The position numbers were made by a program, and so were the translations under genes. A DNA stretch of 64,000 nt from Psilocybe cubensis (taxonomy: Eukaryota): assembly GCA_017499595.2 (NCBI GenBank), contig CM039010.1, positions 744,001-808,000 of the forward strand. Direction: 5' to 3'. Under the pieces are notes generated by a model. The model did no database searches. It worked only from the letters and a program-made list of their open reading frames with translations, and had not been told where the DNA came from. How positions within the stretch are numbered: position 1 is the first letter of the stretch; every line of letters begins with the position of its first letter. This document shows positions 1-5,720 of the stretch, piece by piece.

Positions 1-1099
1 AGTCACTGATACCAACGCCATTGACCCCATCTACACGGCCGCCTCCTATTTCATTTCCGACGAGGAAATATCTGGTGAAAAACACCCACGCCCCTCATCG
101 ATGCACGAACTAGGAAGCAAAGCAAAACATTCCAGGGTCTTATCGACAAAGAACCAGTTACCAAGAGTCCATTTCGTATTCAACAGAAACAGCCTGTTTC
201 CCAGCCCCCGAAGCCTCCCCTCGCTCCCATTCAAAACAAACAATCAACTTTATTTTCAACCCCACCCGCGCCGTCACATATTTCACCCCCGGTCTCTACA
301 CCCAATAATGGTCCATCTCCTGGTCGCATGGTTCGTCGTCGAATGCGACTAGCCCTGTGCTTTCGACTAGTACGTTGCAGACTACGCCTTCGCCTCCGCC
401 GCTTAGCGATGAGGGCTTGGGATCAGGGTCAGGGTCTGGGGCGGGGTTGGTTAGTAGGAAGGAGATGGAAGAATAGCACACCCAGCAGCATACCCAGCAC
501 ACCCAGCAACAGCAGCGCACTAGTACTCAACGCACAGGGACTGGTGCCCGTACTGGCACTGGCACTGGCAATGGTGTCCAGCGCACCAACGCAGAAGGAC
601 CACGGCTTATCCCTGTCGACCCAGTCCGCGCCACCCCGCACCTCCTTGCAAAAATCCCGTATGTGCCCGTGACGATTGCGCATTTGCCGCAGGATAGTTT
701 GGAGGCGCTTAGATCTGTACGTCTTGGCTGTTAATTGTTTGTTTGTTTTCTTGAGCACTTTCTGATGATGGATTGGTTGGTTGGTTTTTGGTCTTTTTAG
801 GCATGGCGCGAGGCATGTGCGCCGCTTTATCATTGTTGTCGTAGTGTGTGTGAGCGTGCGAAGGTGGTTGAGATGAGTGCACGCCCTGCTGCTGCTGCTA
901 TGGGTTCGTAGCAGGGTGTTGTACCGCGGGTCGCATCAGGCGGTGTACCCGACGCCGAATGTTCCGCCGCTGCAGCATGCGGGCGATGAGATTGTGTTAA
1001 AGGAGGATGAGGACGATGGCGTCGATGGCGTCGAGTTGGATACAGATATGGAGATGGAGATGGGGATGGGGAGGGTGAGGAGGAGGTTGATTATGATGT

Positions 1100-1385
1100 T
1101 TTGGATTATGAGGATGAGGATGAGGAGCAGGAGGAGCAGGAGGAGCAGGATGAAGAGGAGGAGGAGGAAAGGGAAGAAGTGCAGGAGGAGGAGGAGGAGG
1201 AGGAGGAGTACGACCCCGACCATGACCATGGCCATGCGGCGGAGAGGTATCGGTACTCTGGCTCTGTCTCTGTCTTTGTTTCTTCGAGTGTAGCTGTACC
1301 CGCTATATACTACTACCACCACCACCGCTACTACCACAACTACCACCACCACAACCACCGCCACCACAACTACAACCACCGCTGC
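1100..1385. repeat. Trinucleotide tracts (GAG/GAT)n followed by (CAC/TAC/AAC)n within unidentified low-complexity gene fragments
   Basis: Directly visible gaggaggag runs and taccaccaccac runs. They give poly-E and poly-H/T ORFs in several frames. Confidence 0.85.
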
Positions 1386-2029
1386 TGATATCCACACTCC
1401 GACGTATAGATCGGTCCCTGCCCCAACCCCGCTCTTCGCACAGCGCCCATTGCGCAAGAGGTCATCTGATGAGCTTAATGATGATGGAGATGGAGAGGGT
1501 GATGCGGGGTACGATACGGCGAGTAGAAGTAGCGAGACGCTTTCGTCTTCGTGGGTGTCTAGTGCTGGAGCCGGTGCGGGGGATAATGGGCGAGAGAATC
1601 AAGGGGATAATAGAGGGGTGTTCGACCTGTTGATGTTGCTGTGGGTGTGGGTGTAAATGTGGTGGCGCCGGAGCTTGTGATGAGGCCGAGGAAACGGAGT
1701 AGTGAGGAGTTGGATGATGAGCATGAACGTGAACGCGGGCGTGAGCGTGGGAGTGAAGAGAGGGTACCGTGTCGGGGAACATACCATAACGACAACCACA
1801 ACCACAACGACACATATAGCCTCCACAACCACCAACGTATCCGGGTGCACGCGCCGCTTTCGCCGTCGTCTGAGAGCCCGCGCAGTAGAAGGCGGAGCGG
1901 GAGTGTGTATTATTCATCGTCTGCCGATGCGGAGGAAGGTGATCGGGATGTGGTGTTTTCTGAGGTGGGCGATGGCGATGTTGATGTTGATGTGCATGTG
2001 GATGGGGATGGGGACGATATCTCAGGGGA

Positions 2030-2336
2030 CGAATTTCTCGATGTTGCCTCGGAGTGGCTGGACGACGCTAAGAAGGCGATTCTGAAAGGGAAGAAAAACC
2101 TTGACAAGTGGTTCCATGATGGAAGAGAATTCATAAAGCGAGATAACTTGCTCTGTAAGTCATTGTCAGATTCCTCATAATGCGATACATACTGATCGTG
2201 TTGTTCTTTTCTCTTAGACGAATATATTACGCATCCTGAATTCCAGAAATATGATTTGAGGGTGACGGAACCCAAGCTTTGTGACCCAACCGTCAAGCAA
2301 TTGTCAGGGTATCTCGACATTGCTGAAGACAAGCAT
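2030..2336 (+). pseudogene. Fragment of a serine carboxypeptidase (S10, carboxypeptidase Y/C-like): propeptide and start of the mature region only
   Basis: EFLDVASEWLDDAKKAILKGKKNLDKWFHDGREFIKRDNLL, then a GT-AG intron (about 2156-2217), then YEYITHPEFQKYDLRVTEPKLCDPTVKQLSGYLDIAEDKH. LCDPTVKQxSGYLD is the typical S10 N-terminal motif. Similarity stops before the expected LFFWFFES. Confidence 0.8.
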
Positions 2337-2535: not shown

Positions 2536-3249
2536 CGAGATTCTCATGGAGGAGTCGAACGTACAGCCTGTAAGGTGCCCGGTCACTGTCTGCGGTGATA
2601 TTCATGGCCAATTCGTGCGTCCCGCTTTGTTTCCTGTACAAAATGACTTTCTTATATCTACTGGCGCTCGTTTCTTTTCCTACGTATCCTTTGCATTCCT
2701 TCTCTGGCTCATTATCGTCGTCATCAGCACGATCTATCAGAACTCTTCCGGATCGGAGGCAATTCTCCGGACACCAACTACTTATTCATGGGCGACTATG
2801 TTGACCGAGGATACTATTCTGTCGAAACAGTTACACTACTGGTCGCCATGAAGCTTCGCTATCGAGATCGGGTCACCATACTTCGCGGGAATCACGAGTC
2901 GAGACAAATCACGCAAGTTTATGGCTTTTACGATGAATGTCTTTGAAAATACGGCAACGCCAGTGTATGGCGCTACTTTACCGACCTTTTTGATTTCCTA
3001 CCTCTTACTGCTCTCATTGACAACCAAGTACGTCGATATCTGCATACACAGCTTATTGAGATTATGCTGTAACATTTCTCGTGTGATGACCCCTACAAGG
3101 GTTATCTCACTTTGGATCTACATTCTCATCAATTGCTGACTCTCATGCCCTAGATATTCTGTCTACACGGTGGTCTCTCATCATCCATCGATCGAGTGCA
3201 GGAGGTTCCACGTGAAGGGCCTATGTGTGATCTTCTATGGTCCGACCCC
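2536..3249 (+). pseudogene. Internal fragment of a PP2A catalytic subunit (PPH21/22-like), disrupted
   Basis: [26 protein letters not shown] | [34 protein letters not shown]...[25 protein letters not shown]...LIDNQ | [32 protein letters not shown]. The PPP motifs GDIHG, GDYVDRG and GNHE are present. There is an in-frame TGA at 2944-2946, an apparent deletion after SID, and both termini are missing. Confidence 0.93.
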
Positions 3250-3251
3250 AA

Positions 3252-5720
3252 GGTGTGGTGCGTGTGCGAGACGACGGGATTGTGTGGGTGAGGTGGGATG
3301 TGCTCAACGATCGGTATAACTATTTTATTTTATTTTTCTTTCTTCCTCGCTAATGCTTTTTTAAATCTTTAGACGGGTCCTCGTAGTCGCCTATCCGTCG
3401 GCCCTGCAGATATGGGATACGTATGATCTGAAAGCTATTAGGGAGGTCGTACGGCTGCGATTCGATGCTTCTGCTCCTTCTGGCACGCAGACGCAGTGGA
3501 GTGCGCTTTTCGCTCTTGGTAGGGAACCGATGGGTACAGTAAAGGGCCAGGTTGCCGGTCATGGTGTCGGTGGTAGGATAGGGTCGGGAAGAGACGGTTT
3601 TACGATCCGCGTTGCACATGCGGTTATCCTTCCCGCTACCAGCCGGCGAGCGAAGGCTGCGACGCGCGACAAGGACGTGTTTGAGGATGAGAGGCCGTTG
3701 CTTGGTGTGTTACTTGAAGCGGAGGCGGCGGAAGAGGATGGTAATGCGGGAGTTGAGTCTGTGACGGAAGTGGTATTTGTGGTGTATTCGCTTCGGACAC
3801 ATCGGGTGGTGAAGCATGTACCGCTCTCTGGGGTTCCTGATTTTGGGAGTCGTGCGGGTACTTTTGATGTTAGCAAGGATTTCGTAGTCCTTGTAAGTTA
3901 CTACTTCTTCTTTATTCTCTTTGAGTTTGTTGATTTTCTTTGCTTTGTCTAGAGCACGAAGAGCCCACCAACACTACATATTCTTTCGTCCGCGACATTC
4001 CGGAGGCTTCACACTATCCACTCAACGTCCCTGGAAGCGTTCACAAGGCCCCCGCGCTTACCTCCTCCTACCCCACATGGCTCAGAAATGAATGTGGATG
4101 TAGCAGGTATCAACACCGCCACAGGAGGACCTCCCAGCGTGCATGCAGACGCAGCAACCGGAAAGTCCAGAACAGGCGCCTTTTCATCGGGCCTCTCATT
4201 GTCCATTGCCTCGAACGCGCTGTATGCTCCTGGGAGCCGCAGTAGCACGCCTGCTTCTGTCAATCCTAGTGGAAATGCTGAGCAAGCTGATGGATCAGCC
4301 TCTGTGCCAGTAGTGTACCCCTCTCCCGTGTTTGCCCTGTCTGGAAGACTCCTGGCGTATGCATCGCCCGTCCCTGGGCGCAGCACGGGGGCTAGTGGAG
4401 GAGATGCCGGCTCTATGTCTCCAGGGGGTGTTGGTGGCGTCGGCTCGTCCCCTTCTCCGTCATCCTTCCTCGGTGTCGGTACCGGTATCACTTCAGGTAT
4501 TAGCAAAGCCTCTCGCAGGCTCTCGTCATCGTCATCAGCGTCTGTACACTCGAACGCACCGTCCAGCGCGTCATCGTCGTCCGCGCCCTTCGGGTTAAGC
4601 GCTATAAGTGGGATTGGGGCAAGTATCCCGCGCACACAGGCGGAGGTGGGGCATGCTGCGCTGAGGGTCGGAGAGAGCGTGGTGAGTGGTATGCGGTTTT
4701 TGGGTGGTATGGCGGTGGATGCTGCGCGTAGCCGGGTGGGCGCTGGCGTGGGAGGTGGTGTGCCAGTCAGGCAGGGTACACCTGTTGGTGCAGGGCGGGC
4801 GGGCGGAAGTGTTAGTGGAGGAGGGAATGGGAGGTACATCTCGAGAAGTGCACCGGATAATGCGGAGGATGTGGATGATTCTGCGGCTGCGCAAGCTTTG
4901 CGTGAGCGCAGGTACTCCGCCAACGCGCCAGCTGCTGTTGGAAGTGTTCCGTCGTTCTCGTCGTATGTCAGTTCGCATGCCGTCGCACCACATACGACGG
5001 GCGTGGTTGAACATGGGCATTATGTGACGGTGCTGGATTTAGCACCGCTCCTGGACTCCAACTCTAGCGGGGTAGATAGATCTGGACTCGATCTGGAGAG
5101 CACTGTGAAGAACATACACGACGTCGACGTTGTCTATAATGACGAACTTGTCGACGACATGCGCCCAATCCGGACCCCTATGAAGATCGATGAATTCAAT
5201 GCGTCGCGCAGCCAGCCCGTTGCAGGTCTCTGCTTCGCGCAAGATGGGACAAGCGTGGGCGTGATCACGCGCGACGGGCACCGTGTCAAAGTATTCAGGC
5301 TCCGCCCCGTGCCATCCGTCGTGCGTCTAGGAGAAAGGAACACATCGTCAGAATTGGTGGAGGAAACTGGTTTGCAGGAGACACCACATGGCCCGCGTGC
5401 TGCGCAGGTGTATGACTTGTATCGCGGACGCACGTCTGCTGTGGTGGAGGGTGTGTATTGGGCGAAAGACAGCAGGTGGGTTGCGGTTGGTACTCGAAAT
5501 AGGACTGTTCATGTGTTCGCGACGAACCCCTACGGCGGAGAGACTGATTTACGAAGCCACATGGAGGGGAGGGTTAGAAATGTGGATGTGATTGTGAGTT
5601 TTGTTCTTTCCTTTATACCGTGCAGGCAGTATTTTTCAGCCTTGACTATGAGCGACTCGTAGCCGCTCGTCATGCTTCTTGATCCGCCCTACACTACAGT
5701 ACCGCCATCCATCAAATAAC
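3252..5720 (+). pseudogene. 5'- and 3'-truncated BCAS3-like (PROPPIN-related WD40) gene fragment with introns
   Basis: [15 protein letters not shown] | RVLVVAYPSALQIWD...VYSLRTHRVVK...PVFALSGRLLAYAS...HYVTVLDL...VYDLYRGRTSAVVEGVYWAKDSRWVAVGTRNRTVHVFATNPYGG. After the last intron only a short, unrelated-looking tail (PLVMLLDPPYTTVPPSIK*) remains. Confidence 0.75.

Follow-up and report, generated by a model that had tools for sequence, protein, structure and literature searches.

Fragments of five host genes in the cargo zone of a CMCT-clade transposon of Psilocybe cubensis

How do pieces of unrelated host genes come to be butted together on one strand with their introns in place? This question is raised by positions 1 to 5,720 of a 64,000-nucleotide stretch of the Psilocybe cubensis genome (assembly GCA_017499595.2, contig CM039010.1, here C13; the whole stretch is henceforth the window). 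A first-pass annotation made from the letters alone had recognized there internal fragments of a carboxypeptidase Y-like gene, a protein phosphatase 2A (PP2A) catalytic-subunit gene and a BCAS3-like gene, and had taken them for cargo captured at the DNA level. Window coordinates are C13 coordinates minus 744000, and negative positions lie upstream of the window. On the evidence set out below, the mosaic is quite probably the cargo zone of a recently mobile cut-and-paste transposon that belongs to the CMCT clade (CACTA/EnSpm-Mirage-Chapaev-Transib and allies) and carries an EnSpm-type (Tnp2) transposase. Of the parts of this reading, the identity of the carrier and the capture at the DNA level are practically certain, and capture by a repair-type process is probable.

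Captured pieces and their donors

A DNA search of the 46.6-Mb, 21-contig genome with window 1-5720 as the query retrieved one strong donor for each piece, with E-values of 3e-48 to 0; copy counts from such searches are lower bounds, as a sister copy of the carrier on C5 was missed by two of them. The cargo zone (window -298..5617) consists of intron-bearing pieces of five unlinked, intact host genes at 77-95% identity to their donors. The donor loci, including that of an older piece farther upstream, are spread over C2 (two loci), C3, C4, C5 and C6:

-298..327 (window part 1..327), plus strand: piece A, the 5' end of a low-complexity gene at C2:1561281-1561951; 89% identity, 4.2% substitutions, 3 frameshifting gaps
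326..2016, plus strand: piece B1, the 3' part of a gene at C2:3780644-3782488; one intron, many frameshifts, the most diverged piece
2015..2336, plus strand: carboxypeptidase Y-like piece, nested in piece B; donor C3:1027615-1027929, 93% identity, 4.4% substitutions, intron 2155-2217
2337..2517, plus strand: piece B2, the same C2 gene continued (C2:3782490-3782685)
2535..3249, plus strand: PP2A catalytic-subunit piece; donor C5:1305971-1306719, 93% identity, 2.4% substitutions, two introns
3248..5617, plus strand: BCAS3-like piece; donor C4:4013098-4010720, 95% identity, 4.6% substitutions, two complete introns plus the beginning of a third
-1116..-1008: older captured piece of 104 bp from a C6 gene

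The carboxypeptidase and PP2A pieces recognized at first pass are confirmed at the positions above. The BCAS3-like identity also stands, but this piece ends at 5617 rather than at 5666, about 23 nt into an intron, whereas the remaining junctions are mid-exon, as had been claimed for all. The low-complexity tracts recorded as unidentified are indeed cargo and can now be assigned: B1 and B2 are the two halves of one C2 gene (3780644-3782685; 77-83% identity, 7-12% substitutions), and window 1-327 is the tail of piece A. In the genome DNA search no donor was found for window 5618-5646, and the only match of 5647-5810 was a transposon relic on C6.

The Pfam calls for two of the named genes were made on the donors rather than on the cargo exons, namely, Peptidase_S10 for the carboxypeptidase donor on C3 (E 2.6e-74) and Metallophos for the PP2A donor on C5 (E 2.1e-19); the BCAS3 cargo piece itself matches BCAS3_WD40 (E 1.1e-11). 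The donors are intact genes with long open frames, and in those of the three named genes the captured exons are free of stops. We also drew on contigs of four sequencing runs (DNA and RNA-like; at most four samples from two studies, one possibly related to the assembled sample), for which results refer to the matches listed. Two RNA-like runs include contigs with donor alleles in which five introns of the cargo are spliced out between GT and AG (2155-2217, 2615-2727, 3028-3153, about 3313-3371 and 3893-3952). Beyond the borders of the carboxypeptidase, PP2A and BCAS3 pieces these contigs continue into donor sequence, and their exon differences from the cargo (e.g., 5, 3, 29 and 70) are near the values of the resident donors (5, 3, 28 and 69). 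They hold donor alleles only and leave the right arm of the element uncovered; possibly they come from strains without the element, and they give no evidence on expression either way. The cargo differs from its donors by 2-12% across pieces, and because the introns are kept, it was copied from genomic DNA. The claim of same-strand, intron-keeping host fragments is thereby borne out, with five intact donors and every firmly oriented piece in sense orientation.

The carrier transposon and its backbone

The cargo zone lies within a 28.8-kb transposon spanning window -24263..7324 (C13:719737-751324). Its twin at C4:2440079-2468916 is 99.6% identical, with homology that starts and stops exactly at the inverted ends and with different flanks, and a third, sister copy with the same ends occupies C5:809888-840246 (30.4 kb). 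The ends of the window copy are as follows (TIR, terminal inverted repeat):

-24263..-24254: left TIR, preceded by the target copy TATA
1..7324: right-hand 7.3 kb of the element, the remainder lying upstream of the window
5618..7314: right arm, of which 5647-7324 is akin to the C6 relic end and 5811-7324 to the C5 sister
7315..7324, minus strand: right 10-bp TIR, the inverted end
7325..7328, plus strand: target-site duplication TATA, present as a single copy in an empty allele

At their left ends the C13 and C4 copies read CAC(A/T)GTGGGA, and at their right ends the T form stands in reverse complement, which yields 10-bp TIRs, and CAC..GTG termini are found in all three full copies. Each copy is flanked by its own 4-bp target duplication (TATA/TATA on C13, AGGC/AGGC on C4 and CTGA/CTGA on C5). 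In the DNA run X5 one contig passes from the C13 left flank straight to window 7325 over a single TATA and represents the empty allele; other X5 contigs carry cargo alleles. In another run, X3, a contig starts matching at 7325, where the flank is a mixed consensus of two contigs. Since the ends and target duplications recur at all copies, the upstream half and the cargo zone belong to one element, and the three full copies, their separate duplications and the empty allele show that it moves as a single unit. With three full copies and a twin at 99.6% identity, it is a recently mobile transposon. A decayed right end, broken by other repeats, is present on C6.

Short TIRs and subterminal repeats are typical of canonical EnSpm/CACTA elements. 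The present element combines a Tnp2 transposase and 10-bp TIRs with degenerate subterminal repeats at element 200-500 and near the right end (about 6945-7005), but its duplication is 4 bp in all three copies instead of the canonical 3 bp; we therefore file it under CMCT with an EnSpm-type transposase rather than as a canonical EnSpm. The CMCT clade is described by 5'-CA..TG-3' termini, a 2-5 bp duplication and a DDE transposase with C(2)C after the second D (PMC12730594), and the CAC..GTG ends, the 4-bp duplication and a C(2)C motif after the second D of the transposase agree with this. Of the carriers put forward at first pass, Helitrons and MULEs are set aside: the element falls in the CMCT clade, and its transposase is of the Tnp2 type.

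Over about 28.8 kb the twins are separated by 93 substitutions; 87 are transitions and 72 fall at CpG, a pattern that we infer to be the footprint of CpG methylation. The window copy is decaying: it has acquired a nested 2.77-kb element, the transposase changes S321 and A527 and a 27-bp loss in the PP2A piece, all of which are absent from the C4 twin. The left-end pattern has 59 matches in the genome at no more than one mismatch; among the 30 of these that were compared, only the three full copies match further. The 10-mer end pattern was uninformative (73 matches versus 68 for the control). A 10-mer match at window 11640 was rejected as an element end, being part of a tRNA-Ala gene; this tRNA-Ala(TGC) gene (window 11636-11720, minus strand) contains the 10-bp terminal sequence of the element in its 3' arm. 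No open reading frame (ORF) of at least 90 codons crosses the C13 or the C4 empty site. The insertion flanks at window 8095-8370 and C13:718581-718846 resemble one another (71% over 295 bp), so that the insertion site was a host region with tandem repeats. Farther along the window, 21500-33000 and 48500-63700 hold four or five copies of a Pkinase_fungal gene, about 77-99% identical in stretches and both direct and inverted.

Upstream of the cargo, the backbone comprises the following features:

about -22781..-21696, minus strand: RTC4-like gene
about -17876..-11880, minus strand: predicted TET/JBP-fold dioxygenase gene, interrupted by the nested element at -17479..-14710
-10541..-10498 (C13:733459-733502): hairpin 1, between divergent genes
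about -10117..-7636, plus strand: Spt5-like gene (NGN match below the curated cut-off; KOW clusters at 0.92, of low recognition value)
about -5415..-1953, main exon -4268..-1953, minus strand: Tnp2 transposase (PF02992)
-1442..-1400 (C13:742558-742600): hairpin 2, between divergent genes

The transposase matches PF02992 (Transposase_21) with 36.6 bits against a curated cut-off of 28.6, and its main exon is open over 772-773 codons in all three copies. It has 92 relatives, most of them with PF02992, and the named relatives of the element's proteins are mostly from Agaricales and Boletales. Residues D425, D524, C543 and C546 are invariant among 26 aligned sequences, and the D, D, C(2)C and downstream E motifs stand in open frames in each copy; the D and E residues we take to be catalytic by analogy. 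Close transposase copies occur only in the three full copies (3 of 8 genome matches). Three more distant Tnp2 loci, at 25-36% identity, lie at C2:4092707-4094233, C5:133249-134831 and C5:3270229-3271734, and the ends of the C2 element are indistinguishable from chance.

The exons of the dioxygenase gene lie inside all three copies, with the HxD, H and R positions kept in each. The element protein has no match in Pfam and PDB sequence searches; its homologue P0001, which is 60% identical, has 472 relatives at E<=0.001 and was linked at 0.93 to Tet_JBP clusters. In a fold search the model of P0001 (predicted local distance difference test score of 81) matched NgTET1 best (Z 16.6, root-mean-square deviation 3.8, 238 aligned), followed by TET2 (Z 16.1), CMD1 (13.4) and CcTet (12.9). 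The model predicts a TET/JBP fold for the dioxygenase carried within the complete element ends. The nested element in this gene (C13:726521-729290) has inverted arms of about 900 bp (95%), no long ORF and a 7-bp target duplication.

The two hairpins have z values of -9.6 and -14.3, and all 12 matches of their pattern fall in the three full copies, with none for the control. Their arms are about 20 bp long, and between copies both sides change yet stay paired. A related short motif clusters in the left subterminal repeats, with 8 of 28 matches in element 215-482. The hairpins are possible binding sites at divergent promoters. On the minus strand of the right arm, a 245-codon open frame (6105-6839) is partly shared by the C5 sister and matches no Pfam family.

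Stepwise capture and the state of the cargo

Neighboring pieces overlap by 2 bp at the junctions of A with B, of B with the carboxypeptidase piece and of PP2A with BCAS3. The junction between the carboxypeptidase piece and B2 is blunt, with 1 bp of B missing, and between B2 and PP2A the pieces do not overlap, with as much as about 17 bp of diverged or filler sequence in between. No junction bears TIR remnants. The same junctions recur in the second genomic copy (C4:2461566-2467312, 99%), and intact parental genes exist elsewhere in the genome, in agreement with the view that this is transduplicated cargo. An X5 contig (2307-2570) bridges the junction at 2535, and X3 and X5 contigs (5566-5939) bridge that at 5617; the X5 contig at the carboxypeptidase/B2 junction has 30 bases on one side, below our 31-base bar, and was not counted. 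The first-pass annotation had named unspanned junctions and missing parental genes as grounds for abandoning capture; instead, the donors are intact and junctions are bridged by contigs from other DNA runs.

Contigs of all four runs contain piece B uninterrupted (joint 1968-2337). Together with the nesting of the carboxypeptidase piece in B, this indicates that the former was inserted into cargo already there. The C5 sister has the backbone (element 1-20178) and the right arm in common with the twins, and its cargo is different. Its slot is filled by butted fragments of an Sds3-like gene (C13, 92%), of a gene on C5 (96%) and of a TEA-domain gene (C7, 95%), joined with overlaps of 1 bp and 0 bp, as well as by about 2.6 kb mostly without a clear donor that includes short matches to a multicopy repeat; the two subfamilies have no large cargo piece in common. 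Capture was therefore stepwise and internal, as the nested piece and the filling of one slot with different genes in two subfamilies show. Between the C4 and C5 copies, substitutions amount to 0.5-3.4% per kb in the left 9 kb and mostly to 4-16% across 9000-20178, a step that suggests recombination or conversion between subfamilies. All seven firmly oriented pieces read in sense (hand estimate, P 0.016) along the plus strand of the element, the transposase lying on the other strand, and the count becomes 9/9 if two pieces inferred from long ORFs are included (hand estimate, P 0.004).

With respect to coding capacity, both twins carry a stop at 2944 within the PP2A piece, and the C13 copy alone has a 27-bp deletion there after 3183. 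The PP2A piece is joined out of frame to the BCAS3 piece. Owing to this stop and frame break, a continuous chimeric protein is not encoded. Transcription as a chimera and silencing of the parental genes, both raised in the first-pass annotation, are conceivable. Pieces A and B and the Sds3 piece of the sister carry frameshifts or stops, although their low-complexity alignments are uncertain, and the BCAS3 piece runs for 741 codons without a stop. The ratio of nonsynonymous to synonymous divergence from the donors (pN/pS) is 0.05 for the carboxypeptidase, 0.13 for the PP2A and 0.20 for the BCAS3 piece, 0.32 for A, 0.36-0.46 for B and 0.18-0.36 for the Sds3 piece. Under three mutation spectra, and taking half of the synonymous divergence to have arisen in neutral cargo, 116, 94 and 63 nonsynonymous differences are expected in the three young pieces against 40.5 seen (P 1e-15, 8e-10 and 2e-3). 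In the same pieces, transitions at donor CpGs make up 16 of 139 cargo substitutions, compared with 72 of 93 between the twins. The low pN/pS and the few CpG transitions fit capture from already diverged alleles, with mainly silent differences. On the basis of these sequence comparisons, the three youngest pieces appear to have been captured recently from alleles about 4% off the resident ones, with roughly 0.5-0.8% decay since capture by a hand estimate.

We hold it likely that these pieces are passengers and give no joint protein product. The alternative that bears on this point is selection on the cargo. Sense pieces would be transcribed from a promoter close to hairpin 2, and splicing would yield a useful RNA or a truncated BCAS3-like protein; or else they would shield the element in that silencing it would also strike essential host genes. 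The sense orientation of every firm piece and of the two inferred ones and the low pN/pS in every piece scored (0.05-0.46) speak for it, as does the open BCAS3 frame, for which the right arm offers a possible acceptor, a short final exon (about 5662-5719) and a stop. However, the PP2A piece is interrupted in both twins and out of frame with BCAS3, A, B and the Sds3 piece are broken, the subfamilies lack a large piece in common, and an open BCAS3 frame is expected anyway if capture was recent. We consider selected cargo unlikely.

Probable capture by repair and its rivals

For a mosaic of passengers, we envisage that breaks would arise inside the element, either after excision or during replication, and would be repaired by short excursions onto other chromosomes through gap repair or template switching with 0-2 bp of microhomology. 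Such insertions would be tolerated only in the slot that lies between the promoter of the transposase and the right arm, and the next transposition would multiply the mosaic. The TET-fold and Spt5-like genes of the backbone may help the element to stay expressed despite CpG methylation, an anti-silencing role proposed for TET on the basis of PMC12730594.

Several points weigh against this account. Overlaps of 2 bp are seen at 3 of 7 junctions, including those of the C5 sister (chance P about 0.08, hand estimate), so that the microhomology is compatible with repair-type capture but not clearly above chance and does not demonstrate a repair mechanism. The diverged donor alleles were not found, and the low pN/pS could instead reflect selection on the cargo. 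The window copy's transposase is off consensus at two nearly invariant residues, S321 and A527, and may need help in trans. The fold evidence for the dioxygenase comes from the model of homologue P0001 and not from the element's own spliced protein, and FTO follows closely in that search (Z 12.7). Further, the duplication measures 4 bp, against 3 bp for fungal EnSpm elements in PMC12730594 and PMC12810828.

Beyond selection on the cargo, the element might be a composite, in which a hairpin-bounded inner transposon of 9 kb with the Spt5-like and transposase genes is embedded in an outer shell. The shell would contain the TET-like gene together with the cargo and would use alternative ends or rely on a different enzyme to move. 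The hairpins lie 9.1 kb apart, match each other in inverted orientation at about 90%, and in the C4 copy can be read as CAC..GTG ends. Yet the inner ends lack a target duplication, C4 and C5 are homologous for at least about 100 bp beyond both hairpins, the hairpin pattern (12/12) and the close transposase (3/8) are confined to the three full copies, and all three target duplications flank the outer ends. A composite is improbable; the inner unit, of which no free copy was found, may be a relic.

Somewhat less probable still is capture by neighboring insertion and aberrant excision, a model proposed from observed mobilization of Arabidopsis Pack-CACTA elements (PMC6379663), according to which the element would hop beside each donor and take up the intervening DNA. 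Possible relic inner ends do exist in the present element, but the donors are unlinked and intact, the junctions are devoid of element sequence, and a piece lying inside another with 1 bp lost is not a direct product of end deletion.

Helitrons lack TIRs and target-site duplications. They are built around a HUH nuclease and a helicase (PMC12730594), and a Helitron as the carrier is ruled out by the TIRs, the target-site duplication and the DDE transposase. That a Helitron or another element made the mosaic, which later landed in the transposon, is very improbable, even though maize Helitrons are described in PMC3288121 as capturing gene fragments stepwise. An assembly artifact, for which one could cite that no listed contig covers the whole stretch, is hardly conceivable, since the copies differ by 93 substitutions and have separate flanks and target duplications, the cargo is 2-12% from its donors, and contigs of other runs bridge junctions.

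The preferred repair-type capture in a mobile CMCT element can be set against known systems. Plant Pack-TYPE elements, including Pack-CACTA, are nonautonomous (PMC6379663, PMC8903248) and, as here, enclose fragments of several unrelated host genes in CACTA-type ends. Like them the present element holds host DNA from multiple loci; unlike them it is fungal and 29 kb long, has its transposase on board along with a multigene backbone, and shows 4-bp duplications and a nested piece. The soybean element Tgm-Express1 (PMC1947982) is close in cargo, with five fragments including exons and introns in 5.7 kb, compared with our 5.9-kb zone. Animal Pack-TIRs (PMC8277862) likewise take up host DNA, with a median microhomology of 2 bp and gap filling or template switching, but are mostly single copy with a donor bias in cis, whereas our donors are unlinked and the carrier is a mobile multigene element.

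The nearest fungal counterparts by description are the TET+ EnSpm elements of rusts and Agaricus bisporus (PMC12730594), which share the CAC..GTG ends, an EnSpm-type transposase and an internal TET/JBP gene and have 3-bp duplications. TET+ fungal transposons are divided into the types PU, AG and PE. In Table S1 of that source, 11 of the 12 rust EnSpm rows listed measure 21-33 kb, and the single listed Agaricales row, from Agaricus, is 8.7 kb and of the PE type, the hallmark of which is HxE; the enzyme here has HxD, and its family has no match in Pfam. Two motifs of this dioxygenase family gave 3 scattered hits among the rows listed in that table, and the words "fragment" and "Spt5" do not occur in its main text. 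CNIRT6 of Cryptococcus neoformans (PMC12810828) is an active basidiomycete CACTA element with similar ends starting CACTG; it differs in its 7.5-kb size, 24-bp inverted repeats and 3-bp duplications, and the passages seen mention no captured host fragments.

Multigene capture by TIR transposons is known from plants and animals, and the fungal CACTA case is seemingly new: we found no description of it in a literature search with little coverage of subscription journals, and elements of this kind could already be among the entries of Repbase. According to PMC13317346, unlinked genes may be captured by a mechanism yet to be discovered. Here, in a small genome, the carrier, donors, junctions, sister cargo and empty allele are resolved to the base and the transposase is aboard, which makes the capture mechanism, the sense bias and the effects on donors directly testable. 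Such pieces are prone to misannotation as gene duplicates, and a low dN/dS between cargo and donor may stem from allelic difference before capture, a warning for comparisons of this kind. A more far-reaching picture, which as a whole we regard as doubtful, is that of a giant transposon with a dedicated, directional capture slot. An element-specific hairpin promoter would drive transcription of the DNA that follows it, aided by the element's own Spt5 paralogue, an undescribed type of TET would keep that DNA free of methylation, and only sense host pieces would survive there, either through chimeric transcripts or because antisense silencing of essential genes is avoided. Recruitment of the Spt5 paralogue at the hairpins would then resemble that of RfaH at ops. 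If this picture is true, the cargo would record alleles of another population or a sister species, and the element would be a recent invader carrying host DNA between lineages.

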